IMG/VR virus record: IMGVR_UViG_2526164667_000035
Origin: a virus
Taxonomy: Duplodnaviria; Heunggongvirae; Uroviricota; Caudoviricetes
Reading direction: 5' to 3' (one strand)
Length of the DNA: 41,051 bases
Within the stretch, counting starts at the first letter, position 1. Every line of letters starts with the position of its first letter. The translations under genes and the position numbers were made by a program. Of this stretch, positions 4,458-37,480 are shown piece after piece. A model generated the notes under the pieces. That model made no database searches. It saw only the letters and a list, made by a program, of their open reading frames with translations, and had not been told where the DNA came from.

Positions 4458-5209
4458 CAGTTTACCCCATCGGTATTGCTTCCACCGCGCTGAACACCGC
4501 CATGAGTGTGCGTATCATCGATTGGCTTGCCGTTAGCCTTCACGCTACCCAAAAACTCAACAGCACCAGTGATTTTTGAAGCCACACCAGAAACAACAGA
4601 CCCCACCATGCCACCCATCCAGGTTAACAGGCCATGAATGGTTACTTTCTCAGAAAAATCAGCCAGGGGGGCAACCACATCAAGCCCCCCCGGAGCGACA
4701 ATTTTAATTTTCCTGGTATCAGGATTAAGCTCAAAATAGGTGCTGCCGTCGTCACTACGCAACTGTGTGGCACTGGTATTAATACCGCTAATCTTCCTAG
4801 CCTGCGACTGGGGACCGACAATACAAAACGCATCCGATAAATCATGCATTCTGTCATCAACAGGCTCCTGTATCCCGCCGCTCTGCCACCAGAAATCAAT
4901 ACAACGATCGGCAAAAACGACAAGACACTCATCCCCGGCTTTTACCGGAAAAGTCAACGTACAGCCTCCGCCGCGCGGGAATACCACTGGCACATCCGCC
5001 AGCAATGGGTAATTTTTGGTAATGCGGTTACCGTAGTTATCCTTTTCAACCGAACGGATAGCTGGCTGCACAACCGCCGTCACCGCGTCAGGAGCGAATG
5101 ACTGAATAATGCCAGGCAAGGCGACGCGGATCTGGTTCTTTGTTGTTTCCCGCTCGGACTTGAATGTTTCGGCAAGGTCACCGCTACGAGTCTGGTCTGA
5201 TATGGCCAT
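4457..5209 (-). CDS. Baseplate spike / assembly protein V-like (Mu gp45 position)
   Basis: Start placed at internal ATG (MAISDQ...) with AGGAG about 7 nt upstream; the longer ORF start would overlap the terminator hairpin. Confidence 0.6.
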   Translation of the reverse strand: MAISDQTRSGDLAETFKSERETTKNQIRVALPGIIQSFAPDAVTAVVQPAIRSVEKDNYGNRITKNYPLLADVPVVFPRGGGCTLTFPVKAGDECLVVFADRCIDFWWQSGGIQEPVDDRMHDLSDAFCIVGPQSQARKISGINTSATQLRSDDGSTYFELNPDTRKIKIVAPGGLDVVAPLADFSEKVTIHGLLTWMGGMVGSVVSGVASKITGAVEFLGSVKANGKPIDDTHTHGGVQRGGSNTDGVN

Positions 5210-23832: not shown

Positions 23833-24255
23833 TTATGCCGCCGAGCAGCTCCTACGCAAAGTCCTGATAGCCTGAGGCTTTGACTGAACCGACTGATCCA
23901 TTTCGAGCACCACATCCAGCATGGCTAAGCAACCGTCAATAAATCCCTCTGCCGCCTGAAGCCTCTTCAGAACGTGGGTGTGAGATACGCCGAGCTTCTC
24001 ACCCATCGCCCGCACGGGCATGGCCTGGACGTAATGCCACTCAAGGAGCGTGCACAGATACGGATCTTTTTTCTTCAGGCAGCTCATAGCGGAGTTGATG
24101 ATAAGACCGTCATTGTCACTGCATTTCAGCCTTCCAGACTGCGTCGCGGGTAGCAGATTCTTAAACCCAGCTGCAACAGGAGGAAAGTAGACGCTACCAC
24201 CTTCACTCGCTGCCCAGCCACCCCAGCGCTCTAAAACCTGTTGAATATTACGCAT
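23833..24255 (-). CDS. Late-gene antiterminator Q (QuuD-like family)
   Basis: 140 aa; N-terminus MRNIQQVLERWGGWAA...AAGFK and ...KRLQAAEGFIDG... resemble small Q proteins of lambdoid prophages by recollection; canonical position upstream of lysis genes. Confidence 0.65.
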   Translation of the reverse strand: MRNIQQVLERWGGWAASEGGSVYFPPVAAGFKNLLPATQSGRLKCSDNDGLIINSAMSCLKKKDPYLCTLLEWHYVQAMPVRAMGEKLGVSHTHVLKRLQAAEGFIDGCLAMLDVVLEMDQSVQSKPQAIRTLRRSCSAA

Positions 24256-24384: not shown

Positions 24385-24565
24385 CTGTACCAACCTGTAC
24401 CCACCTGTACCAGCTCTTTTCAAACCTTTTCCCCAAGCGACTTATATATATATATGGGGTTCTTAGTAATTAGGTTGGTACAGATGGTACAGTTGGTACT
24501 GGCCTTTAAATTCAATTAGTTAAAATGTACCAACCTCTATTTTGAGGTTGGTACAGGTTGGGACA
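24385..24565. repeat. Iteron array and AT-rich tract: putative replication origin
   Basis: Three tandem CTGTACC(A/C)(A/G)C repeats at 24385..24414; (TA)6 tract at 24443..24455; three inverted-orientation copies at 24473..24502; perfect 13-bp inverted pair ATGTACCAACCTC / GAGGTTGGTACAG at 24525..24556 over the primase stop codon. Confidence 0.55.
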
Positions 24566-26729
24566 CCGCCTCAAAAATTCGAGTCATTTTCCCCCCAATT
24601 CGCCTTTGGGCACGCTTATACCCGCAATTTTGCAAAACATTACTAATTCGCATTTCTTCGCGTTTTCCGATGCGGTCAGGATTTAGCCCAATCGCATCAC
24701 GCAAAACATCACTTGCGCGTAAAAATTCGCAATTTCGCGGAAGTTCATTAGTCATCAGGTCTGGCGTGTCGAGCCATTTCTCTACCGTTTCAAGCCAAGC
24801 ATCCTTGATGGTGTACTGTTCATGGACACTCGCTGCCAGTTGTTCAGCCTCACGGAACTGGATACCCCCCAGACGCTGAAACACCTCACGAGCCTCAGCC
24901 CAAAGTAAAAGGAGATCTCTTTTTATCGCTTTCACGTCGACTTTCGACACTTCCACGGGGAGCCAGCGACGGTTACCAGTCTTGTCCGCAAGGAATTCGT
25001 CCTCATTGGTGGTACCAACGAACACCAGGCGACGAGGAAACTGGGTGGCGAACTCCCGGTATTTCGGGATCCAGTTTTCGTGAGTACGCGTCACAAACGC
25101 TTTGATTGACTCCAGCTCTTTGGTATTAAGTCCGCGCAGTTCACCAATCTCTGCCACCAGCCGACCACGCATTTTTCGAGCGAGATCATCGTCTTTTTCG
25201 GCAAAAGAGATTTCAGTAAAAAACGCAGGATCAGGGCTCAGTGCCTCCACTCCGGAAGACTTACCGCAGCCCTGCGGACCAACGAGGATCGGCACCATAT
25301 CCGCTTTGATGCCTGGCTCCAGTACTCGCCCCGCCAACGCGGTCCACATGTACATAGACACCGCACGGGTATAAGGCGTGTCGGCGGTACCGAAGTGCGT
25401 ATGGTAGAAACATTCGATGCGCGGCACGCCATCCCACTCCAGTCCGTTCAGCCAGGTGATCGCTGAATCGAATGGTTGTTCATCGGCTGCAAGTAACACC
25501 ACATCGCGAATAAGTTCACGACCAACAGGTTTAAATCCCCGCTTTTCCATCGTGATGCGCAGGCGCGCATAATCCGCATCGGTGAAGGCCTGCCACTGGC
25601 CGGAGCCTGCCTGGGCGAACATGATTTCGTCACGGAACTGGTCAAAGCGAATATCGATGTCCACGAAGTCAGGACGCACAACGGCTTTTGCCGCGTTGCT
25701 GATGGTGGCCTCGATGCGGCCCCATTTGTCGCGCTCGAACGCCGGCAGCGGTAACGGCTCGGCCACTTCGGTGCTGGTCAGGTCTTCGAAATCGTCGTTG
25801 CGGATCCCGATGGCATTAAGGAAATCGCCGTCGTCGCGGTGCGCGCAGCTAGCGTGCAGGCACTTAAAATGCCCCTGCTCAAAGCCCGCGGTACCGCCCG
25901 GGAAGTAAACCGTGCTCGTCGGGTCGCCGCCGGTGCTGTGGCCGTCTTCGAACGGGCAACGGATATAGCGCTCGCCGTTCGCGCCGTCCAGCAGCGTCCA
26001 GCCATTGGCATCGAGATATTCCGCCGTATCATCCGTGGCGCCGGGCGTGAAGGTTGAACGGTCGCGCATCTTCGTGCTGCCCGCTTCGGTGGTGACCGAC
26101 ACAGGTAACTGTTCCGCCAGTCGCTGCCACAGCGTTTCAAGCTGCTCACCAGTAATAGCCGGAGGTTCATCCGGCAAACCGCCGTCCCATTCGATACGCG
26201 CGCCGCTGCTGTGCGTACCGCAGGCAACAAACTGCTGCCCGTTCGCCAGCAGCTCGATAATCCCCATATCGCCCGCCAGACGGTGGATGCGCTTACGGAA
26301 ATCGCCGTCAACGGCCAGCAGGTACAGGCATTTGTTACTGTTGGCGCGCCAGCGACGCGGCGGCAGCTCACCAAGCAGCTGCACCAGCGTTTTGCGAATA
26401 TCGGCCTGGATATCTTCGTCTTCGCTGTCGCAGTCCAGCGCCAGCCAGCCATGGCCTGTACGCACGCAGATGCCATAATCCGGTTCATTCGACCAGCGGG
26501 CAAAATCATGCTCAGTAACAACATGACCGGTCCATTGAGCAATACCGGTGACCTGACGGTCCCGGTTATAGCGACTTGGCGTCTTACCCAGCGCTTTCAG
26601 TTTACTGTCAGGGGATATAGTCGCACCGGGGTTACATACAACTGGGAGAAGATGAGCAGTTCGCCCCAATACCAGGTCGAAATGAAACCACTCATCAGGC
26701 GTAGCTCCCCATGGTTTGCTATCAGACAT
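24537..26729 (-). CDS. Replication protein: primase-polymerase-like N-terminal region fused to P-loop NTPase/helicase
   Basis: 730 aa; acidic DxD-type motif (LALDCDSEDED), Cys/His cluster (CLHASCAH), Walker A GPQGCGKSS in the C-terminal half; ends within the iteron array. Confidence 0.65.
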   Translation of the reverse strand: MSDSKPWGATPDEWFHFDLVLGRTAHLLPVVCNPGATISPDSKLKALGKTPSRYNRDRQVTGIAQWTGHVVTEHDFARWSNEPDYGICVRTGHGWLALDCDSEDEDIQADIRKTLVQLLGELPPRRWRANSNKCLYLLAVDGDFRKRIHRLAGDMGIIELLANGQQFVACGTHSSGARIEWDGGLPDEPPAITGEQLETLWQRLAEQLPVSVTTEAGSTKMRDRSTFTPGATDDTAEYLDANGWTLLDGANGERYIRCPFEDGHSTGGDPTSTVYFPGGTAGFEQGHFKCLHASCAHRDDGDFLNAIGIRNDDFEDLTSTEVAEPLPLPAFERDKWGRIEATISNAAKAVVRPDFVDIDIRFDQFRDEIMFAQAGSGQWQAFTDADYARLRITMEKRGFKPVGRELIRDVVLLAADEQPFDSAITWLNGLEWDGVPRIECFYHTHFGTADTPYTRAVSMYMWTALAGRVLEPGIKADMVPILVGPQGCGKSSGVEALSPDPAFFTEISFAEKDDDLARKMRGRLVAEIGELRGLNTKELESIKAFVTRTHENWIPKYREFATQFPRRLVFVGTTNEDEFLADKTGNRRWLPVEVSKVDVKAIKRDLLLLWAEAREVFQRLGGIQFREAEQLAASVHEQYTIKDAWLETVEKWLDTPDLMTNELPRNCEFLRASDVLRDAIGLNPDRIGKREEMRISNVLQNCGYKRAQRRIGGKMTRIFEAVSQPVPTSK

Positions 26730-26904
26730 GGGTTAAGCCTTTTTGTTTGACTACATTTTTTTGCTCCAAAATCTTTTCAAGTTGAAGAGCTCTTAGCTCT
26801 GGGATTTCCTCCCCCCATTGAGATACGGCTCCTTTGGAAACCTTCAATAGTCTCGCTAGTTTCGCTTTACTTCCTGCAAGCTCAATTGCTTCTGCTTTTT
26901 TCAT
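26722..26904 (-). CDS. Cro-like HTH regulator (YdaS-like)
   Basis: 60 aa from the ATG (MKKAEAIELAGSKAKLARLLKVSKGAVSQWG...); divergent from the repressor gene. Confidence 0.6.
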   Translation of the reverse strand: MKKAEAIELAGSKAKLARLLKVSKGAVSQWGEEIPELRALQLEKILEQKNVVKQKGLTHV

Positions 26905-26913
26905 ACCCGTCAC

Positions 26914-27017: not shown

Positions 27018-27710
27018 ATGATTAATGATCGTATTCGCGAGGCTCGTCGCAATGTCCACCTAACGCAGGATGCGCTTGCTAAACGTATTGGTCTAACTAA
27101 AGCCACGATTTCACAATGGGAATCCGGAAACACCACACCTAACGGGAAAAATCTTATAAATCTGGCCGAAGCATTGAACGTTTCTCCAGAGTGGCTACTT
27201 TCAGGCAAAACAAGCGATACCAAAGAAATACATTCTAATGCACAAGTTGAGGGGGGGTTTTCTGTATGGGACTCATCAACGCCATTAGAGGATGATGAAG
27301 TGGAAATACCGTTCTATCAGGAAATTGAACTATCTGCCGGTAATGGTACTTATGTTGATATAGATCGAATGGGATGTAAGTTAAGATTCGCCCGTTCAAC
27401 GTTGCGCAAAGCAGGTGTTGACGTAAATTGTGCGGCTTGTGTCAGCATCCACGGCAACAGCATGGAACCGGTATTACCAGATGGCGCTGTCGTCGGCATA
27501 GATACATCAAAAACAGGTGTAAAAGATGGTCAAATGTACGCTATAGACCAAGACGGATTACTTCGTGTCAAACTATTGTACCGTCTCCCAAGCGGACTCC
27601 GGATACGCTCTTTCAATAGGGATGAATACGCAGACGAAGAGTATTTTAATCAAGAGGCTAATAAAATCAGGATTATAGGCCAAGTATTTTGGTACTCCGT
27701 TCTGCTCTGA
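27018..27710 (+). CDS. CI-like prophage repressor (N-terminal HTH, C-terminal S24 LexA-like peptidase domain)
   Basis: N-terminal HTH (LTQDALAKRIGLTKATISQWESG) and C-terminal GNSMEP serine motif with downstream Lys; GAGGG SD 7 nt upstream. Confidence 0.85.
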   Translation: MINDRIREARRNVHLTQDALAKRIGLTKATISQWESGNTTPNGKNLINLAEALNVSPEWLLSGKTSDTKEIHSNAQVEGGFSVWDSSTPLEDDEVEIPFYQEIELSAGNGTYVDIDRMGCKLRFARSTLRKAGVDVNCAACVSIHGNSMEPVLPDGAVVGIDTSKTGVKDGQMYAIDQDGLLRVKLLYRLPSGLRIRSFNRDEYADEEYFNQEANKIRIIGQVFWYSVLL

Positions 27711-27734: not shown

Positions 27735-27761
27735 GCCCGCTTCCTAAGCGGGCTTTTCTTT
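27735..27761 (+). terminator. Rho-independent terminator after the repressor gene
   Basis: GCCCGC-TTCCTAA-GCGGGC hairpin followed by TTTTCTTT. Confidence 0.7.
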
Positions 27762-27798
27762 ACCTATCCGAAAAAGTTCACTTTTCTTAACTACAACA

Positions 27799-27834
27799 CT
27801 TGACTTTGTGAGTTTAGAGGTCTTAACTATATGC
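27799..27834 (+). promoter_or_regulatory. Candidate early promoter (PL analogue)
   Basis: TTGACT, 17-nt spacer, TTAACT; the -10 is weak, so this is tentative. Confidence 0.3.
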
Positions 27835-28022
27835 GTGAAGTTAAGATATCTATACACAGATATTTAAACTACAAGTCGAACGGCGCGACTCTAAACCATG
27901 CGTCGGGACCGTGGCGGGACAGGATGTCGGCAATACGGGTCAGTAAGTTCCCTTTGGGGTGCGGCGAAGCACTGGGTCGAAGCCGCCGAACCACCAAAGT
28001 GAACTGAATGAGGAATCACAAG

Positions 28023-28217
28023 ATGCCTAAATATAAACTGGTTAATGACCTGGCTATCGGCGACAAAATTGAATTCAGTGGAAAACGGATAATGGAGGTT
28101 ACCCAAAAAACTGACCGCGACCAGCATAACGTTAGCCTGACTCTAGTTAACAAACATACAGGTTCTGCGACTAATACTTGTTTTAACCGAATGGATACCG
28201 TCGTCCTTCCCCCATAA
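28023..28217 (+). CDS. Small hypothetical protein (64 aa)
   Basis: ATG with upstream TGAGGA; followed by a terminator. Confidence 0.4.
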   Translation: MPKYKLVNDLAIGDKIEFSGKRIMEVTQKTDRDQHNVSLTLVNKHTGSATNTCFNRMDTVVLPP

Positions 28218-28259
28218 CAATCCTCTGAATCCTCCATGTAATTGCTGTGTGTAGTCTTT

Positions 28260-28287
28260 GCCCGCCTCAAGTGACGGGCTTTTTTAT
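28260..28287 (+). terminator. Rho-independent terminator
   Basis: GCCCG...CGGGC stem followed by TTTTTT. Confidence 0.5.
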
Positions 28288-28344
28288 GTCTGAAAGCGCA
28301 CTCGCAACAGCGTGCTCCCCGATATGAAAAAAGGAATACAACCG

Positions 28345-28494
28345 ATGAAACCTGAACACATCCATCGACTGACGGGGCGCGATGTTCTCCGTTATCGCCG
28401 TAAAAACTTCGATTTGATGACCGGTCTGGCCGTTGCCACTGCGCTCGGTCTGATCATCACTTTCATTCTCCTTGTAGCGAGGCCCACAGTATGA
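28345..28494 (+). CDS. Small single-pass membrane protein (49 aa)
   Basis: Internal ATG with AAAGGA SD; C-terminal hydrophobic helix (LAVATALGLIITFILLVA); stop overlaps the next start. Confidence 0.35.
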   Translation: MKPEHIHRLTGRDVLRYRRKNFDLMTGLAVATALGLIITFILLVARPTV

Positions 28495-29393
28495 GTTTAG
28501 AAACCAATCTAGAACTTAATAATCAACTTCTGGCACAACATAATGCGCTGCTTGAACGTCTTATCCGCACAATGGCATCAGGCATTGTTATGCATCCTGA
28601 CACGATTTCACGAGTGCAGGAATGTCGGGATACAGCAACTGAAACTGAAAATATGTCAGCGGCAATGACACTGGATGATCTGGAGTTCAGCGACGTTATC
28701 GCACTGGCTGGTTTCTACCCGGTAGCCACCCCTATCACAGAAGACATGCTGCAACGTGCTGTTGCCTACCGTGATGCTGAAGGCGATAAACGAGTAGTTC
28801 AGATTGATGCTCTCGACAGCGCATTGCAGGGCGTCAAACGAGCCAGGGCGCTGCTTAAACCTGCTCTCCTGGACCTGTCCCGTAACATCCTTAAGTTCTG
28901 GGACGACCTGCCAACCATCGGCGAGCGACGTGCTTTTGCCGAGCAGCTACTTGATGCACCTGCGGATGGGCGTGATGAAGTTAAGCCGAAAAAGGCCAGT
29001 AACAAGGATGGAGAACGCACGGGGCCGTTTTACGTCAAAAATGTATCCGGCACAGCAGCCAGTGAACTCCACACCTTACGCAAGTTGAACGAGATGCTGA
29101 AAAAAGGCCATATCGAGATCAACCGTGTTGAGTACCTTCAGCTGCAGGAAGAATTTGCACGCAGAGACGCAGCAAATTCCAGCCAGAATAATGACGCCAA
29201 AGATGACCATACAATTGATTTCGCGGCACTACGCAAACAAGCTGAAGGGTTGATCCTCCAGTTAGCAAAAGGGGGTTACCGGGCAGAAGCTATTGCAATT
29301 CTGGAAAAACAGGGAGCCAGGAAACTTGGTGAAGTAACGGATGAAAATCTCGCTGAAGTAATCACCCTGGCTGAAAAAGCACTGGAGGGTTAA
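28491..29393 (+). CDS. Hypothetical protein (300 aa)
   Basis: ATGA start overlap with the upstream gene; no motif recognised; mixed charged / helical composition. Confidence 0.5.
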
Positions 29394-29395
29394 TC

Positions 29396-30697
29396 ATGCC
29401 AGACGTTCATGCACAACTTTCTCCATCATCAGCGCATCGATGGATGCTCTGCCCAGGAAGTCTGGCGCTGGAGGCCACACAACCGGATAAAGAAACAACT
29501 TTTGCAATCGAGGGCACTGCAGCGCACGCGCTTGCTGAAAAAGTTCTACGAAACAGGCAAAGCCACCCGGAACACTACGCCGGATGCAATGTTTCTATGT
29601 TTCTCGGCTCATACCCCCTTCGCGAAAATCCTGATGATACATCTGGCCCACAGGTGGATGATGAAATGGTCGAAGCCGTTGGCCGGTATGTTGATACGGT
29701 CTGGACTCTTGCACAGAATAATGAACTATTGGTTGAACAACGTGTTGATTTCTCACATATAACGGGTGTGGAAGAATCTTTCGGAACTGCCGACGGCATA
29801 ATCATCGCTGGTAACGAATTACAAATCCACGACCTGAAATATGGCAAAGGCGTCCGCATTGATGCAGAACAAAATGAGCAACTACAACTGTATGCTCTGG
29901 GTGCGCTTGAACAATTCAGCATGCTGTATGACTTTGAAACTGTAAGATTATTTATTCACCAACCAAGGCTCAACCACGTTTCAGAATGGTCGTTAACCGT
30001 ACAGGAACTTCAGTCTTTCGGTGAACGGGCGCTGGAGGCCGCAACCAGTGCGATCCTTGTTCTCAATATTGCTGAATGCGAAGGCATTGAGACACTACCG
30101 CTGGAAAACTTCATACCTGGAGAAAAACAGTGCCGCTTCTGTAAAGCAAAAGCTATTTGCACTGCCCAGAAAATGCAGCATTTACAAACAGCGGCCAGCG
30201 ATTTTGAAGATCTGACAAAGCCTGTCAGCGAAATAATCACCAATGCCAGCGCACGTGTACCTCTGTTAACCATTGAGCAGCTTGCAGAGATCTATAGCCA
30301 GGCCAACTTTATTGAATCCTGGCTAAAGGCAGTACGGGACCGGGTTCACAATGAACTCAATGCCGGACATCCGGTACCGGGGTTTAAACTGGTAACAGGA
30401 AAACAAGGTAACCGGGCCTGGAGTGACGAAGAGGCAGCTCGCGCACTTCTGAAGGACCAGTTCAGGTACAAAACTGAAGAAGTATTCGACTTTAAACTTA
30501 TTAGTCCCACAAAAGCCGAAAAACTTATCAAAAAGGCCAGTCCGCGCCGTTGGTCAAAAGTCGAGGCACTGATAACACGAGCTGATGGTAAACCCACCGT
30601 CGTTCCCGAGTCAGACCCACGCCCCGCACTCAATATCAACCCTGTAAATGATTTCGACGACGTATCCGACGATACGCTAACCGCAGACCTTATCTGA
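29396..30697 (+). CDS. PD-(D/E)XK-type nuclease, DUF2800-like (Cas4/RecB-like with C-terminal Cys cluster)
   Basis: N-terminal [15 protein letters not shown] and Cys cluster [10 protein letters not shown], matching DUF2800 hallmarks as I recall them. Confidence 0.6.
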
Positions 30698-30712: not shown

Positions 30713-31261
30713 ATGAAACTGAAGCTGAACAATGTTCGTCTGGCCTTCCCGTCTCTGTTTGAAGCTAAAACTGTAAACGGCGAAGGCGATCCGCGTTTCT
30801 CCGCAGTATTTTTAATGTCTCCCAAACACCCACAACTGGAAGAAATCCGTAAAGCTATGAAGCAGGTAGCGAAGGAAAAATGGGGGGAGAAGTGGGAGTC
30901 CATTTATAACCAGCTGGAGAAAAAACTCAATCTGTGCCTGCATGATGGTGATGAAAAAGCAGAGTATGAAGGCTTTCCCGGCAATTTCTTCCTGAACGCT
31001 GCTAACAAAGCGCGCCCAGCTGTTCTTGATCGCGATCGTTCGCCACTAATTCAGGCTGATGGACGTCCCTATGCAGGGTGCTATGTAAACGCCGTTATCG
31101 ATATCTGGGCACAGGACAATAATTTCGGTAAACGCATTAATGCCTCACTCGGCGGAGTCCAGTTCCTGCGAGACGGCGATGCATTCGCTGGCGGCGGAGT
31201 GGCAAGCGCTGACGATTTCGACGATATCAGCGAAGGTGCTGATGCTGAAGCACTAATTTAA
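30713..31261 (+). CDS. DUF2815-like protein (phage single-strand DNA-binding-like)
   Basis: N-terminus MKLKLNNVRLAFPSLFE resembles DUF2815; sits between DUF2800 and the DNA polymerase as in known phage replication modules. Confidence 0.55.
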   Translation: MKLKLNNVRLAFPSLFEAKTVNGEGDPRFSAVFLMSPKHPQLEEIRKAMKQVAKEKWGEKWESIYNQLEKKLNLCLHDGDEKAEYEGFPGNFFLNAANKARPAVLDRDRSPLIQADGRPYAGCYVNAVIDIWAQDNNFGKRINASLGGVQFLRDGDAFAGGGVASADDFDDISEGADAEALI

Positions 31262-31312
31262 AAATATTCATCCCCCAGCTACGTGCTGGGGTATCTCATG
31301 AGGGAAAGGATA

Positions 31313-31954
31313 ATGTCACAGCCCGTATTAACTAATCACCTTAAAACTCAAATCATCAATAACGCACTTGAGAAAGCGGGTATCCCCAAACGTAAATCAG
31401 CACTACGAGCTGCTCGTGTTGAATGGGCCGAACGTGTTCGGCTTGCAGCTATCGGGGGCGTAGAGAAAGACGCTGAAATATTAAAAAATATAAAAAAGAT
31501 TGAATCCATGGTAACAAAAATCCCTGATTCATTAAAAACCAATAGTTCTTTAATTCGAAAAGATTGCTGCATATATCTCAATCTGGCTGGAGCCAGAGCA
31601 AACATTTATTTCAATGGCAACTACAGAGGTTATGAATCAGGAGCCCCCGAGCATATTAATAAAATAGCACCTGCAGAATTTACTCTACTTGGCGAAGATC
31701 CTCTGGTAACGGAGTTTTATAGCTTTGATGCTCTCTACACACAAATTAAAAGTGATGAAACCGAAATCATACAGAACGTCAGCGCGGCTCTAAATAAAGT
31801 TCGGACAGTAAAACGATTACTGGATGTATGGCCCGAAGCTAAAGAACTGCTTCCAACAGACGCACCGCCAGTCCCTTTAGCACCAGCAGTACATCGAGAG
31901 ACATTAAATGAAATGATAGGCCTTCCTACCAATACAGTGTCTGATACTCAATAA
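31313..31954 (+). CDS. Hypothetical protein, AT-rich (213 aa)
   Basis: Start at ATG with GAAAGGA SD; markedly lower GC than flanking genes; no motif recognised. Confidence 0.5.
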   Translation: MSQPVLTNHLKTQIINNALEKAGIPKRKSALRAARVEWAERVRLAAIGGVEKDAEILKNIKKIESMVTKIPDSLKTNSSLIRKDCCIYLNLAGARANIYFNGNYRGYESGAPEHINKIAPAEFTLLGEDPLVTEFYSFDALYTQIKSDETEIIQNVSAALNKVRTVKRLLDVWPEAKELLPTDAPPVPLAPAVHRETLNEMIGLPTNTVSDTQ

Positions 31955-32637
31955 CAAGGGGGATGCTTATTATATGATTTTGAACGTTTTACAATCTCGT
32001 TAAGAGGCGTGAAATCAAAATCTCTGAATAACACATCAGGATACTTCGCTCTTGCTTTATCCAGCAGGCCAGTTAAAGTATTTTTTGTGTTACCCAACAT
32101 TGTATTAACCGCCACTACATGTCTAATTTCTGGAGGTTTATCTATACCACCAGAAATTGCTTCATTAAGAACCGACGCCAGTGGGGTTTGTCCCTTACTT
32201 GTTGAATCCCACAGCGTCATTAACAGACGAGCTGCGTCTATAAATAGCTTTTTGTCAGCATTTGGCTTGACAGTAATACCGGAACTACCAGAGCCAGAAC
32301 CGGAACGTTCTATTGCTGCACTGGTATCCGATTTCATAGGATTAAATAACGGCAGCTCTGTACAACCGATACGCCGAATGAAATCCTTTGCAACATCTCT
32401 ACCACAGAAAAAAGCCCCTGTACAATTTTCATCAGAGCGTTTTTTAAATGAAAAACAATAGTACTGATCGGTTAACGGATAACCGGAATAACTGGTTTTA
32501 GTTTGTCCAGTAATAAGTTTCAGGTGTGCAACAGGCTGAATAATAAAATCCCGAACTATCGCATCTTTTATGTCGTTACCACGGTGACAATAATATTCAG
32601 GTAATCCATTAGGCTGTCTCTTATTACCCACAGTCAT
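31948..32637 (-). CDS. Hypothetical Cys-rich two-domain protein on the opposite strand, AT-rich (229 aa)
   Basis: Strong AAGGAGG SD; N-terminal region with Cys/His positions (CH...C...C...C...C), SGSGSGSSG linker, then a C-terminal domain; 7-bp convergent overlap with 31313..31954. Confidence 0.55.
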   Translation of the reverse strand: MTVGNKRQPNGLPEYYCHRGNDIKDAIVRDFIIQPVAHLKLITGQTKTSYSGYPLTDQYYCFSFKKRSDENCTGAFFCGRDVAKDFIRRIGCTELPLFNPMKSDTSAAIERSGSGSGSSGITVKPNADKKLFIDAARLLMTLWDSTSKGQTPLASVLNEAISGGIDKPPEIRHVVAVNTMLGNTKNTLTGLLDKARAKYPDVLFRDFDFTPLNEIVKRSKSYNKHPPCY

Positions 32638-32698: not shown

Positions 32699-34762
32699 AT
32701 GTCCAATATACTATGGGGCGACCTGGAAACCTATTGTGACATTCCGATCAACAACGGTACCCATGCGTATGCCGAAGGCGTTGAAGTGATGCTTTTCGCA
32801 TGGGCTATCAACGACGGGCCAGTAAATGTGTGGGATATCACTGCCGGTGGTGGTATTCCACACGGCTTATACGAAGCAATCGCAGACCCTGAAACCCTGC
32901 TTTATTTCCATAACTCTCACTTCGACCGCACCGTTCTGCGTTATGCAATGCCGCGACTGGCACCGCCAGTCGAACGTTGGCGCGACACGATGGTGCAGGC
33001 GCTGGCGCACGGTCTCCCGGGGTCTCTGGGGGAACTCTGCGAAATACTAGGCGTCCCGCAAGACAAAGCGAAGGACAAAGAAGGTAAAGCGCTGATCCAG
33101 CTGTTCTGTAAGCCACGCCCGAAAAACAGCAAACTGCGTCGGGCCACCAGTAAAACCCACCCGGAAGAATGGCGGCGCTTTGTTGATTACGCCGGACTGG
33201 ATATCGAGGCAATGCGCGAAGTCTATAAACGTCTGCCGAAGTGGAATTATCAGGGGACAGAGCTGGCGCTCTGGCATCGTGATCAGCAGATCAACGACCG
33301 GGGCGCCTGCATGGACATGCAACTCGCGCGCGCTGCGATCGAAGCGGTAGACCAGGAGCAAAAGCGCTTGGCAAAGCGTACACAGGAAATGACTGATGGC
33401 GAAGTGCAGGCAGCCACACAACGGGACGCGTTGATTAAGCACATCGTTGAATCCTACGGTGTGGAGCTACCAGACATGCAACGCAGTACCCTGGAACGTC
33501 GTATAGCCGACCCCGATTTACCATCTGCCGTGAAAGAACTGCTGGCTATCCGCCTGCAAGCCAGTACTACCAGCACCAGTAAATACAAGGCACTGATGAA
33601 AGGCGTAAGCCACGACGGGCGCTTACGCGGTACGCTACAGTTCTGCGGGGCGTCACGTACCGGTCGTTGGGCCGGACGGCTATTCCAGCCCCAGAACCTT
33701 CCCCGCCCTTCACTAAAACAGGAACAAATAGACGAAGGCATCGAAGCACTGAAAGCCGGATGTGCAGACCTGCTGTTTGACAATATCATGGAACTAACCA
33801 GTTCAGCGTTACGTGGCTGCATTATCGCGCCAACAGGCAAAAAACTGGTGGTAAGTGACTTGTCAAACATTGAAGGCCGTATGCTGGCATGGCTGGCGGG
33901 AGAAGAATGGAAACTGAATGCATTCAGAGAGTACGACGCCGGAACGGGTCCGGACTTATATAAACTGGCGTATGCAAAAGCTTTCGATATTGCACCAGAT
34001 GATGTTGATAAACACATGCGTCAGATCGGTAAAGTCATGGAACTCGGTCTGGGTTATGGAGGTGGTGTATCGGCTTTCATCACTTTTGCTCTGGTTTACG
34101 GTCTCGATCTCGACGAGCTGGCGAACGCCGCGCTGCCAAACATTCCCCGCGATGTTATCCGCGAGGCGAAAAGCTGGTACGACGAATCGGTTAAACGTAA
34201 GTCGACCTTTGGCCTGTCCGAGCGTGTATTCATCGCATGTGACTCGCTCAAGCGCCTGTGGCGCAGGGCGCACCCGGCGACCTGCGATTTCTGGTACGAG
34301 CTGGAGCGCACTGTCCGCACAGCAATCGCCACACCGCAAAAAACATTGTATTGCGGTTATCTTAAAATCCGCCGCGATGGCGCGTGGCTGCGCATACAGC
34401 TACCATCCGGACGCGCTGTATGCTACCCGTCTCCGGTTATCGAACAAGGGAATATCACCTACATGGGTGTTAACTCTTATTCGCGTAAATGGCAACGACT
34501 CAAAACCTACGGCGGAAAGCTGGTGGAGAACGTCACCCAGGCGGCCGCCCGCGACGTTCTGGCCGGAAACATGCCGCTTATCGAAGATGCCGGTTACAGC
34601 ATTGTGCTGACGGTACACGACGAGGTGATCACCGAATCACCTGACACAGAAGATTTCAACGATAAAGCGCTTTCCGCGCTTCTCTCCACTAACCCCGAAT
34701 GGGCGCCCGATATCCCACTGAACGCTGGCGGTTTTGAGGCGTACCACTACCGTAAGGATTAA
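32699..34762 (+). CDS. Family A DNA polymerase with N-terminal 3'-5' exonuclease domain
   Basis: 687 aa; exonuclease-type motifs ([15 protein letters not shown]) and polymerase motifs ([16 protein letters not shown]; VHDEV). Confidence 0.85.
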
Positions 34763-34767
34763 CTCCT

Positions 34768-34983
34768 ATGTCATTTAAATACCGGGATAATCCACTTTAT
34801 TACAGGGCTGCAAGGGAGGCTTTGCGACTTGAACAATCCGGCGAATATGACCGGGCAGCGAAGGTCTGGGCAAAAGCCAACCGCGAATCACATCACGAAC
34901 TGAATCAGGAATGGAGTGAACGCAGATCTGATTTTTGCCTGATGCAGAATATGCGTGAAAAGCGTAAGGCGGTCGAAGAATGA
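34768..34983 (+). CDS. Small hypothetical protein (possibly ANR-like small regulator)
   Basis: 71 aa; vague resemblance to small prophage regulators by memory only. Confidence 0.35.
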   Translation: MSFKYRDNPLYYRAAREALRLEQSGEYDRAAKVWAKANRESHHELNQEWSERRSDFCLMQNMREKRKAVEE

Positions 34984-35279
34984 TCGTTTACGTTGCCGGG
35001 CCGATGAGCGGTTACGAGCAATTTAACCGCCCGGCCTTTCATTCCGCAGCAAAGAGGCTAACGGACAAGGGATATGTTGTGCTTAACCCCGCAACTTTAC
35101 CCGATGGTTTGACACAGGCTCAGTACATGGACATCTGCCTCGCAATGCTTCGCTGTGCCGATACGATTTATATGCTCAAAGAGTGGGAGTACTCTGCCGG
35201 CGCACGTGCAGAAAACGCGTTGGCAGAGAAACTGGAATTGAATGTGCTTTTTGAAGAGTGGGATTCAGATGGCCTATGA
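34980..35279 (+). CDS. DUF4406-like protein (nucleoside 2-deoxyribosyltransferase-like fold)
   Basis: 99 aa; N-terminal MIVYVAGPMSG...VLNPA pattern typical of DUF4406 as I recall it. Confidence 0.5.
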   Translation: MIVYVAGPMSGYEQFNRPAFHSAAKRLTDKGYVVLNPATLPDGLTQAQYMDICLAMLRCADTIYMLKEWEYSAGARAENALAEKLELNVLFEEWDSDGL

Positions 35280-35562
35280 ACGTGAGAGCCTTATCGAAAA
35301 GCACCTCGTCGCTGAAGTGAAAAAGGCTGGCGGTGTGGCCTTTAAGTTCGTATCTCCCGGTCGCCGCTCGGTACCGGATCGCATTGTTCTGCTACCCGGC
35401 GGCCGTCTTGTTTTCGTTGAATGCAAAGCACCCGGCAAAGCACCACGCGCCGACCAGTTGCGCGAGCACGAGCGGCTGCGCGAGCTGGGCTTTACCGTGG
35501 TGGTGCTGGATAGCAAAAATCTGGAGGGGATATTGTGCGGGGAGCCTATTACAACGAAATAG
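35269..35562 (+). CDS. VRR-NUC domain nuclease
   Basis: 97 aa from the internal ATG; PDRIVLLPGGRLVFVECKAPGK motif; typically paired with an SNF2-like helicase in phage genomes. Confidence 0.6.
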   Translation: MAYERESLIEKHLVAEVKKAGGVAFKFVSPGRRSVPDRIVLLPGGRLVFVECKAPGKAPRADQLREHERLRELGFTVVVLDSKNLEGILCGEPITTK

Positions 35563-36548
35563 ACCCTAACGCAGCACAATGGCTGCGTAACCTTATTGCT
35601 GCGGGTCATATCGCCCCGGGTGAAGTTGATGAAAGGAGTATCGAAGATGTCGCACCAGACGACTTGCGCGGATTCACACAGTGCCATTTCTTCGCCGGGA
35701 TCGGCGTCTGGTCTTATGCTCTGCGTCTGGCCGGACGGCCGGATAACAAACCGGTCTGGACAGGAAGTTGCCCGTGCCAGCCTTTCAGCTCGGCTGGTAA
35801 AAGCGCTGGGTTTGATGACGAGCGGCACCTATGGCCAGCACTATTCCACCTCATCAGCGAGCGACGCCCTAAGCTGGTATTTGGCGAACAGGTTGCGGGA
35901 GTCAATGCCTGGTTCGATCTTGTACAAACTGACGTGGAAGCAGTGGACTACGCCTTTGGGCTTGTCCCGTTTCCGGCTGCGGGCGTCGGTGCCCCGCATA
36001 TCCGAGATAGAGCGTATTGGGTGGCCGACGCCAGCGGCGAGCGACCACAGCGGTGGCGAAAGCGCCTCAATAGCATTGAGGAAGATGTCTGGAGATCGTC
36101 GACCGTCCGGCAACACGCTACACAGCTCCCTGCGGGATTTTGCTCACCTGGCGGGGTGGTACACCCCAACCTGCAACACAAACCCACAGCCGGAGACAAA
36201 ACGCGGTCTAGAAACCTTAGCGGGGCTATCCAGATTAGCGGGATGGCCGACAGTGACGACGGTCGACAACAACCAAGTTCGTGGCGAGGGCCCAGCAGCC
36301 AATCATACCAAACGGGGAACGCCCCTCGGCGGCCCAATACGATTAACAGCTGCTGGGATGATGCTGACTGGCTCCTCTGCCGGGATGGTCGCTGGCGGCC
36401 AGTTGAATCCGGCACATTCCCGTTGGCTCATGGGATTACCTCCAGAGTGGGACGACTGCGCGCCTACGGCAACGCGATAGTCGCACCAGCTGCCGCAACA
36501 TTCATCCGCTCGTTTATGGAATGCGCAGGATACGACCTCATCTGTTGA
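35535..36548 (+). CDS. DNA (cytosine-5) methyltransferase
   Basis: Motif I FAGIGVWS (FxGxG), motif IV PCQPFS, ENV-like GEQV, RxR-type HIRDRAYWV; GTG start with GGAGGGG SD. Confidence 0.75.
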
Positions 36549-36550
36549 TA

Positions 36551-37480
36551 TTATGGGTTAGGTAATGCACGATTATTAAAATTATCAATAATTTGCAACG
36601 CCGCCGTTTGTCCGCCAGCCAATAGCCCTGCTTTACTCAGAAGGTATTTAGGGAATTTGGTTGGTAAATAAACCGCACGAAGCCAGTGCCTGAATACAGC
36701 TAAAGCATTATCAGGGTATGCATAGACCATTTGGGGATTACTTGCGGATTGGTTGAATTCTTCAGGGTAATAGTGCTGGCAGCGTTGTCTTGGGCCAATC
36801 GTCGCATCGTAGTTGGAAGAAGACCAGTAGCGAGCCCAGTGCTGGCCCACACTGATATCCGGTACAGTGTACTGGTTTACTGCTAATCCAGCATGGATGA
36901 GGTCTACCATTAAACCGGCAATTTCATTGAATACAATGAAATGTCCAGCAGGAACCGAGTTTGCCCCATGCATGATTGACACACGAGAGTGGTAATGACG
37001 CCAAGGGTCATCAGGTATGTAGCCAAGCGCTGTATAGATGTAACCACGCATACCCGCACGGGATAGCTCACGGAAAAACTGTAGCGCAGTAGGAGTTGCA
37101 GCACTTTGAGATACAAATGCGTAGAACTCCAGAATAGCCATACAGACTACTTCTGGGTACGCATAATGGACTGACCCATCTTTGTTGATTGGGATATAAA
37201 GAGTCGGCTCATTATATTGCTCACGCTGTAAATATGAGCTGATAAACTCCATACGCCCTCGAGCGAAAACTCCGTGGCGGAAGCTCTCTTCCCACTCTCG
37301 AGAAATATCCGCGATATTACTACGATGCACCCCGCAAATCCTGGCCAGCCCATTTTGCGTAAGGTAGGAGATCCCGTTCTGAAGAACCCCCATTTCTATT
37401 TCGTTAAAAACCCCCTCAGTACTAACACCTAAGTCCAGTATTTGTTGGGGTGCGGGTTGCTGACCACCAAATTCACTCAT
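36551..37480 (-). CDS. Hypothetical protein with putative N-terminal HTH, opposite strand to neighbours (309 aa)
   Basis: Segment ISYLTQNGLARICGVHRSNIADISREW looks like a helix-turn-helix; convergent with the methyltransferase and divergent from the helicase. Confidence 0.5.
   Translation of the reverse strand: MSEFGGQQPAPQQILDLGVSTEGVFNEIEMGVLQNGISYLTQNGLARICGVHRSNIADISREWEESFRHGVFARGRMEFISSYLQREQYNEPTLYIPINKDGSVHYAYPEVVCMAILEFYAFVSQSAATPTALQFFRELSRAGMRGYIYTALGYIPDDPWRHYHSRVSIMHGANSVPAGHFIVFNEIAGLMVDLIHAGLAVNQYTVPDISVGQHWARYWSSSNYDATIGPRQRCQHYYPEEFNQSASNPQMVYAYPDNALAVFRHWLRAVYLPTKFPKYLLSKAGLLAGGQTAALQIIDNFNNRALPNP

Follow-up and report, generated by a model that had tools for sequence, protein, structure and literature searches.

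The proposed control region downstream of the cI-like repressor

The three genes studied here, at 28023-29393 of the window (the whole 41,051-nt stretch of phage DNA that was analysed), lie between a cI-like repressor and a set of replication genes. The original prediction described three ORFs after the repressor, and indeed all of them were found on the plus strand, co-directional with the cI-like gene. The features of the region and its surroundings are listed below.

27018-27710, plus strand: cI-like repressor (Pfam HTH_3 2.4e-18, Peptidase_S24 2.8e-17; PHROG 4, transcriptional repressor)
27735-27761, plus strand: intrinsic terminator of the cI transcript (hairpin 27735-27753), GCCCGCTT-CCT-AAGCGGGC then TTTTCTTT
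27776-27791, 27812-27827 and 27840-27855, no strand assigned: three copies of the 16-bp operator motif GTTAAG-N4-CTAAAC, flanking or overlapping the early promoter
27800-27805 and 27823-27828, among the operator copies: early promoter, -35 TTGACT and weak -10 TTAACT
27881-27941, plus strand: putative putL-like processive-antitermination RNA of 61 nt with two stem-loops (conserved core 27874-27945)
27946-28015, plus strand: GC-rich hairpin at the 3' end of the leader (from folding), then Shine-Dalgarno GAGGAA at 28010-28015
28023-28217, plus strand: 64-aa accessory gene, with GAGGAA 7 nt upstream
28240-28287, plus strand: module like the 3' half of RprA (Rfam RF00034, 50.3 bits, E 3.2e-5)
28241-28264, plus strand: 24-nt stretch AATTGCTGTGTGTAGTCTTTGCCC, identical to E. 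coli RprA
28261-28280, plus strand: terminator hairpin GCCCGCC...GACGGGC, then T6 at 28281-28286
28345-28494, plus strand: 49-aa tail-anchored membrane peptide, core gene (PHROG 11981 at 2.6e-35)
28491-29393, plus strand: 300-aa APSE-1 P53-like protein, core gene (PHROG 6784 at 1.5e-179; PHROG 33976)
29396-30697, plus strand: DUF2800 PD-(D/E)XK exonuclease (Pfam DUF2800 1.2e-109)
30713-31261, plus strand: Enc34/gp2.5-like ssDNA-binding/annealing protein (Enc34_ssDNA-bd 2.4e-44)
32699-34762, plus strand: PolA (DNA_pol_A), to which the operon continues
36551-37480, minus strand: BstA, a recognisable defence gene, away from the repressor

The order on the plus strand from 27754 to 29393 is cI terminator, promoter and operators, put-like RNA, 64-aa gene, RprA-like terminator, and the 49-aa and 300-aa genes. 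The 64-aa ORF had been described as bracketed by terminators. This is correct for the downstream terminator at 28261-28286, but the upstream one is cI's own and lies 270 nt before the ORF; the promoter, the three operators and the put-like RNA, all located between the two, had been missed.

The cI terminator has a GC-rich, 8-bp stem with a folding energy of -14.1 kcal/mol (z -4.69; fold and terminator scan), and no shuffled sequence out of 200 was as stable. Because this strong terminator follows cI and the next promoter is flanked by cI-type operators, the three genes are not a co-transcript of the cI-rexAB type. The operator motif also occurs twice in the cro-cI intergenic region (26938 and 26985). 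Eight of its ten matches in the window fall in the cro/cI and early-promoter regions, where 2.2 would be expected, and ten matches were reached by none of 100 shuffles. We infer that cI binds at these GTTAAG-N4-CTAAAC operators.

At the position of the early promoter, relatives whose immunity type differs carry clear sigma-70 promoters. A consensus promoter scan did not report the promoter at 27800-27828, whose -10 is weak in this immunity type, and it reported none before the 64-aa gene (27946-28022) or the 49-aa gene. This negative result is weak; because the scan is also blind to the annotated nun promoter in O276, a constitutive promoter may lie ahead of the 64-aa ORF.

The leader RNA resembles the put elements of lambdoid phages. 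Its core at 27874-27945 is 82.4% identical to HK022 putL over about 72 nt, and matching elements are annotated as "putL: antiterminator RNA" in O276, HK75 and HK639. The order repressor, pL, put is common to HK022/O276, HK639, phiEt88 and UPF_BP1, and the position of the window element, downstream of the promoter and operators at 27776-27855 and upstream of the terminator at 28261-28286, is as in O276. In a structure derived from the same six sequences on which it was tested, 93.3% of cells are paired across the 20 pairs (25-41% in slid controls), six pairs are changed on both sides, including all five of helix 2, and the covariation score was reached by 0 of 500 shuffles. The core is almost invariant inside this prophage family, so the covariation comes only from the comparison with lambdoid and P22-like elements. 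Homology and geometry together identify 27881-27941 as a putative antiterminator. Put-like elements are present in 62 of 5426 E. coli genomes. The hairpin that closes the leader varies in length among relatives, with insertions in its loop.

In some relatives, put is replaced at the same site by a leader with an exact rrn-type boxA, GCTCTTTAACAA, which occurs exactly once in each of nine loci; this region of the window has no such boxA. The relative L013 is a hybrid in which the operators of the window are joined to a boxA leader. The two leaders are therefore interchangeable, which is consistent with a shared role in anti-termination. Three other identities for the leader were rejected. A lambda-type nut site does not fit, as no boxA was found within two mismatches in 27750-28350; for a tRNA-like or tmRNA-like element, prompted by an ...ACCACCA motif, ARAGORN found nothing; and as for a coding sequence, indels in relatives disrupt the 34-aa and 58-aa ORFs that cross the leader, and neither ORF has a Shine-Dalgarno. 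At gathering thresholds, Rfam reported no family across the whole window, and put RNAs appear to be absent from Rfam.

Altogether, we favor the reading that 27754-29393 is the start of a repressor-controlled early operon, a counterpart of the HK022/lambda PL operon (probability about 0.7), with repression and antitermination both predicted from homology and geometry. In a lysogen, cI on the operators would keep the early operon silent. Upon induction or infection, the put RNA would act in cis to render RNA polymerase terminator-resistant, in the manner of HK022 put, which depends on the beta-prime zinc-binding region and is blocked by rpoC zinc-domain mutations. The resistant polymerase would pass the RprA-like terminator and transcribe the genes for replication and recombination. 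Any polymerase that terminates there would release a short RNA with an RprA-like 3' module of the Hfq-binding type.

The likeness to the left side of HK022 immunity extends over the whole arrangement: repressor, operators and promoter, put RNA, a small dispensable ORF, an intrinsic terminator, and early genes, all in the same orientation. The window put is 82% identical to putL and keeps both stem-loops via compensatory changes. There are also clear differences. The window phage is a non-lambdoid myophage with a VapE primase and a PolA replication module, its 64-aa ORF bears no relation to Nun and lacks a recognisable nun-type promoter, a strong terminator stands between cI and the promoter, the downstream terminator is RprA-like, and sister prophages swap put for a boxA leader.

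The RprA-like terminator

The terminator at 28261-28286 was missed by a simple terminator scan because its loop is beyond the limit of that scan, while the Rfam RprA model aligns it as the terminator of RprA. Against the full RprA model the window scores 50.3 bits, below the gathering score of 70, and the L006 locus scores 52.4 bits. The module matches annotated rprA at 84.8% over 46 nt, in 5424 of 5426 E. coli genomes. It shares with RprA the identical 24-nt stretch followed by a terminator hairpin and U-tract, and some relatives also retain AUCCCCUGA(G/A)U of RprA's central region. In the phage hairpin, however, one A-U pair is changed to G-C and the next pair is mismatched, and the phage module lies within an operon, where it closes a cargo mRNA at the 3' end. 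No recognisable trace is left of RprA's 5' stem-loop, of the middle of its rpoS-pairing stretch or of its own promoter region; the part aligned to the RprA 5' half falls within the 64-aa ORF, without real similarity, and relatives have other cargo there.

The RprA-like module is present in every relative whose locus reaches far enough, including Salmonella and Klebsiella prophages, and its terminator stem covaries across the E. coli, Salmonella and Klebsiella relatives. Unrelated, N4-like Erwinia phages carry the same module as well, at the 3' end of their gene for thymidylate synthase. We found no paper describing an RprA-like phage terminator.

These observations raise the possibility that 27830-28287 mainly yields RNA rather than protein, with a processed 3' end that copies the 47-nt form of RprA, binds Hfq and alters the RpoS, Rcs and NarP circuits, and with the cargo ORF secondary. 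The 47-nt processed RprA (RprAproc) is biologically active on its own, represses a narP(+1+50)-lacZ fusion, and has its counterpart in the window module (PMC9262595). In addition to this activity, such a role is favored by the 24-nt single-stranded stretch and the terminator, identical or near-identical to those of RprA, by the retention of the module in every relative while all of the upstream sequence varies, and by its recurrence in the Erwinia phages. On the other hand, the 64-aa ORF is under clear purifying selection (dN/dS 0.09-0.25) and is therefore a real protein gene. The Rfam score is below threshold and the RprA elements named above are not recognisable, and the upstream put should carry most polymerases past the terminator. 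We regard an RNA as the main product as a tentative possibility, with the odds against it.

The cargo slot, the 64-aa gene and exclusion

The stretch from the leader RNA to the RprA-like terminator is a hypervariable slot: relatives carry at least six different cargos in it, and the 64-aa gene is an optional occupant. The homologues of the 64-aa protein all start with MPKYK, so the phage does not use the 69-aa reading from 28008; they form eight protein clusters at 66-95% identity. The protein is predicted to be a small, single-domain, all-beta barrel with the EF-P/eIF5A domain-I (KOW-like) fold, in which the hairpin tip K29-x-D31-R32-D33-x-H35 is invariant. It is a soluble beta-barrel and not a membrane protein.

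No significant sequence or profile match to EFP_N emerged: there was no Pfam hit at E values up to 10, a PDB profile search gave E 0.22, and hhalign against EF-P sequences entered by hand gave E 0.089 and 0.0027. As to the modifiable Lys/Arg at the beta3-beta4 loop tip, the invariant Arg32 aligns with Arg32 of EarP-type EF-P, with acidic residues on both flanks. Compared with domain I of EF-P, eIF5A and EfpL, the 64-aa protein is stand-alone, without OB-fold domains II and III, and its tip is an acidic D-R-D instead of P-G-K-G. The EF-P-domain-I-like fold is common to many small uncharacterised phage proteins, and for this reason the fold does not settle either homology to EF-P or function. 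Our literature search found no paper combining elongation factor P, KOW and phage-encoded.

We tentatively view the 64-aa protein as a dispensable first-early factor that serves in host takeover, anti-defence or exclusion and may target the machinery of translation or transcription via its EF-P-domain-I/KOW-like fold. It is conceivable, though unlikely, that the phage mimics host regulators at the head of the operon, through either (a) a working copy of processed RprA or (b) the 64-aa protein as a mimic of EF-P domain I. If (a) were true, induction, or a cargo promoter active in the lysogen, would release an RprA copy able to bind Hfq and to redirect the host regulation that depends on RprA; if this copy works, the module in the N4-like Erwinia phages would mark a recurrent phage strategy. 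If (b) were true, the 64-aa protein would target the ribosome, an EF-P-modifying enzyme, or, as a KOW mimic, RNA polymerase or Nus factors, and would serve to exclude rivals or take over the host.

The original prediction treated the position after cI as an exclusion slot. Its accessory-gene idea holds for just one of the three, the 64-aa ORF; the other two genes belong to the core of the replication module. Of the three, the 64-aa gene is the only remaining candidate exclusion factor. In HK022, nun is the first ORF after putL and is followed by a terminator, which is where the 64-aa ORF sits, and nun's own promoter is annotated between putL and nun. According to King, Madsen and Weisberg, in 2000, nun is reportedly an exclusion gene expressed in lysogens. 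The status of the 64-aa ORF as optional cargo, the terminator directly after it, which would stop transcripts not passed through put, and the blindness of the promoter scan to nun-type promoters also favor such a role for this ORF. In addition, phage BTP1 carries bstA immediately 3' of cI (PMC8585504).

For all three genes to be lysogen-expressed superinfection-exclusion or abortive-infection factors like rexAB, sieB, nun and bstA is nonetheless improbable. Lambda rexAB, P22 sieB and BTP1 bstA likewise adjoin the repressor gene and are co-directional with it. The window genes, however, have no sequence or profile similarity to them, and they are not co-transcribed with cI because the terminator intervenes. 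A strong terminator parts the genes from cI, and operators surround the one promoter that could be recognised. None of the three proteins matched an exclusion or defence family such as RexAB or SieB in PADLOC, Pfam or NCBIfam, and the 64-aa protein, whose fold is all-beta, shows no similarity to Nun (BLASTP E 6.2). More broadly, searches for known families in Pfam, NCBIfam, PADLOC and PDB sequences gave nothing for any of the three. The window also has a bona fide BstA elsewhere; unlike BTP1 bstA, this homologue lies at 36551-37480, on the opposite strand. Finally, the 49-aa and 300-aa genes are core genes downstream of the RprA-like terminator, and in distant phages as well as virulent-like ones they keep synteny with replication genes.

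The 49-aa and 300-aa genes and the replication module

The original prediction of a 49-aa single-pass membrane protein was borne out, with one hydrophobic span at residues 27-45 (Kyte-Doolittle 2.56). The length of 49 aa is right, because an in-frame upstream ATG is out of frame in the relative L002. Homologues of 46-49 aa form 54 clusters across Enterobacterales, in which the first 20 residues and the C-terminal ILLVAR hardly change and the transmembrane core is variable. The N-terminus is basic and is placed inside by hydropathy. A similar tail-anchored peptide with the common motif HR(L/Y)..LTG.D is found at the same place in the Yersinia phage YeP5, while APSE-1 has no transmembrane peptide at this position. 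A 49-aa ORF downstream of put in phiEt88 was considered as a relative and proved unrelated.

The 49-aa gene overlaps the 300-aa gene by ATGA, and the two strictly co-occur, both being present in every relative examined. The 300-aa protein has 591 homologues, and the family comprises only 77 representative clusters among 1.84 billion proteins. Its layout consists of an N-terminal helix, a helical middle domain, a GPFY... motif and a C-terminal three-helix bundle. Structure prediction, which had been suggested as a check, gave an AF2 model of low confidence (pLDDT 61), whose matches are generic helical bundles only. The N-terminal helix, the middle domain and the C-terminal three-helix domain are common to the 300-aa protein and APSE-1 P53 (PHROG 33976). 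Relative to P53, the 300-aa protein has an extra GPFY... insert and other linkers, and its gene is preceded by the 49-aa transmembrane peptide, which APSE-1 P53 is not.

The DUF2800 exonuclease begins 2 nt past the stop of the 300-aa gene. A P53-like gene is located directly upstream of this nuclease in the window, in the E. coli, Salmonella and Klebsiella relatives, in APSE-1 and in YeP5. The window carries the DUF2800 nuclease, the DUF2815/Enc34 SSB and the family-A polymerase in one co-directional block, and a duf2800-gp2.5-polA replication/recombination module has been described (PMC8093625). The rest of the plus-strand arm, up to the integrase, consists of replication and modification genes. 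As a finding that would speak against exclusion, the original prediction had named silence in lysogens together with homology to replication or recombination proteins, and the synteny of the 49-aa and 300-aa genes with the exonuclease, SSB and PolA comes close to this.

The geometry of the locus argues against expression of the 49-aa and 300-aa genes from a repressed prophage, and we infer that they are early lytic genes rather than lysogen-expressed exclusion factors. Gene neighbourhood, the sole basis here, suggests with low confidence that their products are early lytic accessory parts of the exonuclease/SSB/polymerase machinery. Our best guess, a speculative one, is a membrane-anchored scaffold or adaptor.

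Two other functions were weighed. Like lambda Kil or cIII, the 49-aa peptide could serve host takeover, for instance by inhibiting cell division or FtsH, instead of belonging to the replication machinery. It is small and encoded in the early operon, the near-invariant cytoplasmic N-terminal 20-mer combined with a variable transmembrane core suggests a conserved host target, and YeP5 has a counterpart at the same place with HR(L/Y)..LTG.D. However, the peptide has no homology to Kil or cIII, APSE-1 lacks a transmembrane peptide there, and the ATGA overlap and strict co-occurrence with the P53-like gene argue for a shared function; a Kil/cIII-type role is therefore doubtful. The 300-aa protein could in turn initiate replication or bind the origin in the way lambda O does, with an origin in or near the gene. 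Its gene is the first large gene of the replication operon, and the protein has an N-terminal coiled-coil-like helix and flexible acidic linkers, as in some initiators. This is very unlikely given that there are no iterons and no AT-rich block in or near the gene, there is no similarity to any initiator family, and the phage already has a VapE/D5-type primase-helicase at 24537-26729. VapE/D5-type primase-helicases typically recognise their own origin.

On the early-operon reading that we prefer, the region would not be a lysogenic-conversion gene set but would hold the regulatory sequences and opening genes of an early operon antiterminated by put, in a prophage family present in about 3% of complete E. 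coli genomes. HK022-type put RNAs would operate outside lambdoid phages, and the exchange of put and boxA-type leaders at one site in sister prophages would let two anti-termination strategies be compared as they occur in nature. Put would have to override a terminator that closely copies the active 3' part of the host sRNA RprA, which makes this terminator a directly testable case of possible phage sRNA mimicry. Between put and this terminator lies a short, sharply bounded hot spot for accessory genes, a good place to seek new anti-defence or exclusion proteins, including the EF-P-domain-I-like one. The 49-aa and 300-aa genes stand out as conserved companions of the widespread DUF2800/gp2.5/PolA module.

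Layout of the phage and of the region after cI

The window represents a temperate myophage or prophage of E. coli; of 5426 complete E. coli genomes, about 153 have its conserved part. From 28233 onward it shares 98.6% identity with vB_EcoM-606R2 and its relatives (three induced phages), which do not share its immunity region. The genes and elements are arranged as follows.

Features of the window
Minus strand: tail, head and lysis genes
23833-24255, minus strand: Q antiterminator
24537-26729, minus strand: VapE-type primase-helicase
26722-26913, minus strand: cro
27018-27710, plus strand: cI
27881-27941, plus strand: put-like element (conserved core 27874-27945)
28023-28217, plus strand: 64-aa ORF
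28240-28287, plus strand: RprA-like terminator
28345-28494, plus strand: 49-aa ORF
28491-29393, plus strand: 300-aa ORF
Plus strand, in order: DUF2800 exonuclease, gp2.5/Enc34-like SSB, Nmad5 (31283-31954), PolA, DUF4406 (34980-35279), C5 cytosine methylase (35535-36548), SNF2 helicase
31948-32637, minus strand: 229-aa ORF
36551-37480, minus strand: 309-aa ORF
Minus strand, beyond the SNF2 helicase: integrase

Nmad5, the nucleoside 2-deoxyribosyltransferase-like DUF4406 protein and the C5 methylase are all encoded in the early operon, and this gene content suggests that the phage modifies its own DNA. The 229-aa ORF, counter-oriented between Nmad5 and PolA, has no Pfam or PHROG match and only a weak match to IetA (E 0.032). 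In relatives this position holds other genes, making it a second accessory slot.

Early promoter and leader RNA

The original prediction placed three unrecognised ORFs, the 64-aa one bracketed by terminators, in the slot where lambda has rexAB and P22 has sieB, and read small membrane proteins at this position as plausible exclusion factors. The ORFs and terminators are present; overlooked were a promoter, operator motifs and a put-like leader before the 64-aa ORF. Downstream of the cI terminator lie a -35 element (TTGACT at 27800) and a weak -10. The 16-bp motif GTTAAG-N4-CTAAAC is present three times around them, and two more copies lie between cro and cI. Eight of the ten matches to this motif in the window fall in the cro-cI and early-promoter regions, compared with 2.2 expected. 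At the same spot in relatives with another immunity type, the inverted repeats differ and the sigma-70 promoters are clear. From this geometry, we infer that the 27800 promoter is the cI-repressed early promoter.

HK022 putL is an RNA that acts in cis to render RNA polymerase resistant to terminators. The leader core in the window (~72 nt) is 82% identical to it and almost unchanged behind promoter/operators of four or more types; in phages O276, HK75 and HK639, the corresponding features carry the annotation putL. A two-stem-loop model was scored on an alignment of the window element with the put elements of HK022, HK639, phiEt88, UPF_BP1 and S9-5: 93% of cells were paired, versus at most 41% in slid controls, and across the six sequences all five pairs of lower stem II changed on both sides. 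Judged by its sequence and structure, the leader is a put RNA, and it would suppress termination in the early operon. An alternative hairpin, GNCG-AACGGC(G/C)-CGNC (27875-27889), lies just upstream of and overlaps put stem I, and also occurs in putL and putR of O276. Its paired arms covary, being GUCG/CGAC in the window, GACG/CGUC in putL and ACCG/CGGU in putR, and this hairpin may be in competition with stem I.

Elsewhere in the prophage family, and in APSE-1 and Yersinia phage YeP5, a different leader stands at the put position. It opens, immediately downstream of the early promoter, with an exact rrn-type boxA, GCTCTTTAACAA (position 5093 in relative locus L001, 1593 in L005, 2090 in L006, 119 in L008, 4083 in L009 and ~3766 in L010-L013), and continues into a conserved structured leader of ~200 nt with a shared motif, CUGGCAAAACGAAAUAGC, and no match in Rfam. 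In L013, the window's operators are fused to the boxA leader. This fusion and the common position indicate that put and boxA leaders are interchangeable cassettes, which fits a shared role in suppressing termination.

Cargo slot and RprA-like terminator

The 64-aa ORF is a real gene, with a good Shine-Dalgarno and dN/dS of 0.09-0.25. Its homologues (66-95% identical) always occupy the same slot in E. coli, Salmonella and Klebsiella prophages, and it occurs in roughly 12 of 153 E. coli prophages. The slot runs from the leader to a fixed right boundary (CTGAATCATCC...), and six or more distinct inserts are found there among relatives.

Inserts in the cargo slot
64-aa gene
CxxC...CxxC protein, ~65 aa
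Acidic peptide, 33 aa
68-aa protein
170-174-aa protein, starting MITVKRAEYLSAL...RYYLNGIFF (loci L017, L018, L021, L032, L037, L041)
189-aa gene, opposite strand

The 170-174-aa protein may be similar to the beta sliding clamp in its domain I. The 64-aa protein is modeled by AlphaFold as a confident all-beta fold (pLDDT 92) common to many small uncharacterised phage proteins; its invariant Arg32, at a hairpin tip, aligns with Arg32 of EarP-type EF-P, with sequence support that is weak but in register. A rexAB/sieB-like exclusion gene is at most a possibility here, and HK022 nun is the better analogy. The 64-aa gene occupies nun's position, the order in O276 being pL, putL, nun promoter, nun, terminator. 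The 64-aa protein is unrelated to Nun. No nun-type promoter was found before the gene by a promoter scan that also misses the real nun promoter, so the gene may yet be expressed in lysogens.

Both predicted terminators, that of cI and the RprA-like one after the 64-aa ORF, proved real. The Rfam alignment of 28167-28289 to RprA scores 50.3 bits against a threshold of 70, and the genuine similarity is confined to the last 46-47 nt. There, AATTGCTGTGTGTAGTCTTTGCCC matches E. coli rprA exactly, followed by a hairpin in which one A-U pair is replaced by G-C and the adjoining pair is mismatched, and then by a T-run. In RprA itself, this 3' part is released by processing as a 47-nt RNA with activity of its own (PMC9262595). 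Every relative whose locus extended far enough has the element, including Salmonella and Klebsiella prophages, in which the stem varies by covariation and RprA's AUCCCCUGAGU is also kept in some copies. In N4-like Erwinia phages (Ea9-2, locus L048 401-447; also Frozen, Rexella, Gutmeister and Tellus), the same module comes directly after the thymidylate synthase gene, and it occurs at 29 places on E. coli plasmids, suggesting that mobile elements repeatedly recruited this sRNA end. Our literature search found no paper on an RprA-like phage element. The terminator would be the one read through by put-modified polymerase, a counterpart of tL1; more speculatively, it may additionally yield an RprA-like RNA.

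Conserved gene pair and defence

The 49-aa ORF (PHROG 11981; 54 clusters of 46-49 aa across Enterobacterales) and the 300-aa ORF (PHROG 6784; 591 homologues, all annotated hypothetical) are likewise real, and the pair is found in every relative examined, making these core genes. The peptide has an almost invariant cytoplasmic N-terminal 20-mer, one hydrophobic span and an invariant ILLVAR motif. Its stop overlaps the 300-aa start (ATGA), and the exonuclease starts 2 nt past the 300-aa stop. In a Salmonella relative (L011 4463-5350), an extra 295-aa gene (YdhT_N, faint collagen match) separates the 48-aa peptide gene from the P53-like gene, so the overlap is not obligatory.

The 300-aa protein is related to APSE-1 P53. 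APSE-1 and YeP5 both have a P53-like gene immediately before those for the DUF2800 exonuclease, gp2.5-like SSB and PolA, and in YeP5 a tail-anchored peptide whose N-terminal motif is related is encoded at the position of the 49-aa gene. In phages, the duf2800-gp2.5-polA block is recognised as a module for replication and recombination (PMC8093625). With 77 representative clusters among 1.84 billion proteins, the P53-like family is small, and searches found no known homologue; the structure model of the 300-aa protein is mediocre and matches generic helical bundles, and its gene contains no iterons indicating an origin. The domain with its GPFY...IEI(N/T)KVEYLQ motif recurs in longer proteins from the search of representative sequences (P0185 and P0187, 500-513 aa), whose N-terminal parts match PHROGs labelled "exonuclease" (hhalign E 2e-11). 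As a tentative working guess, in which we place low confidence, the pair could form a membrane-tethered adaptor or scaffold for the exonuclease/SSB/polymerase machinery.

The rexAB/sieB analogy fails for these two conserved genes. The window's recognisable defence gene is the 309-aa ORF, a BstA homologue (PADLOC E 3.3e-110) counter-oriented inside the early operon. BstA is a known defence of prophages that works by abortive infection and is paired with a DNA element, aba, for self-immunity. Its gene directly follows cI in BTP1 (PMC8585504); here it sits between the methylase and SNF2 helicase. Altogether, operators, put-like RNA, cargo slot, RprA-like terminator and replication operon make up an established architecture. 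We infer that the operon would be silent in the lysogen and antiterminated by put, with the three proteins acting in the putative roles proposed here.
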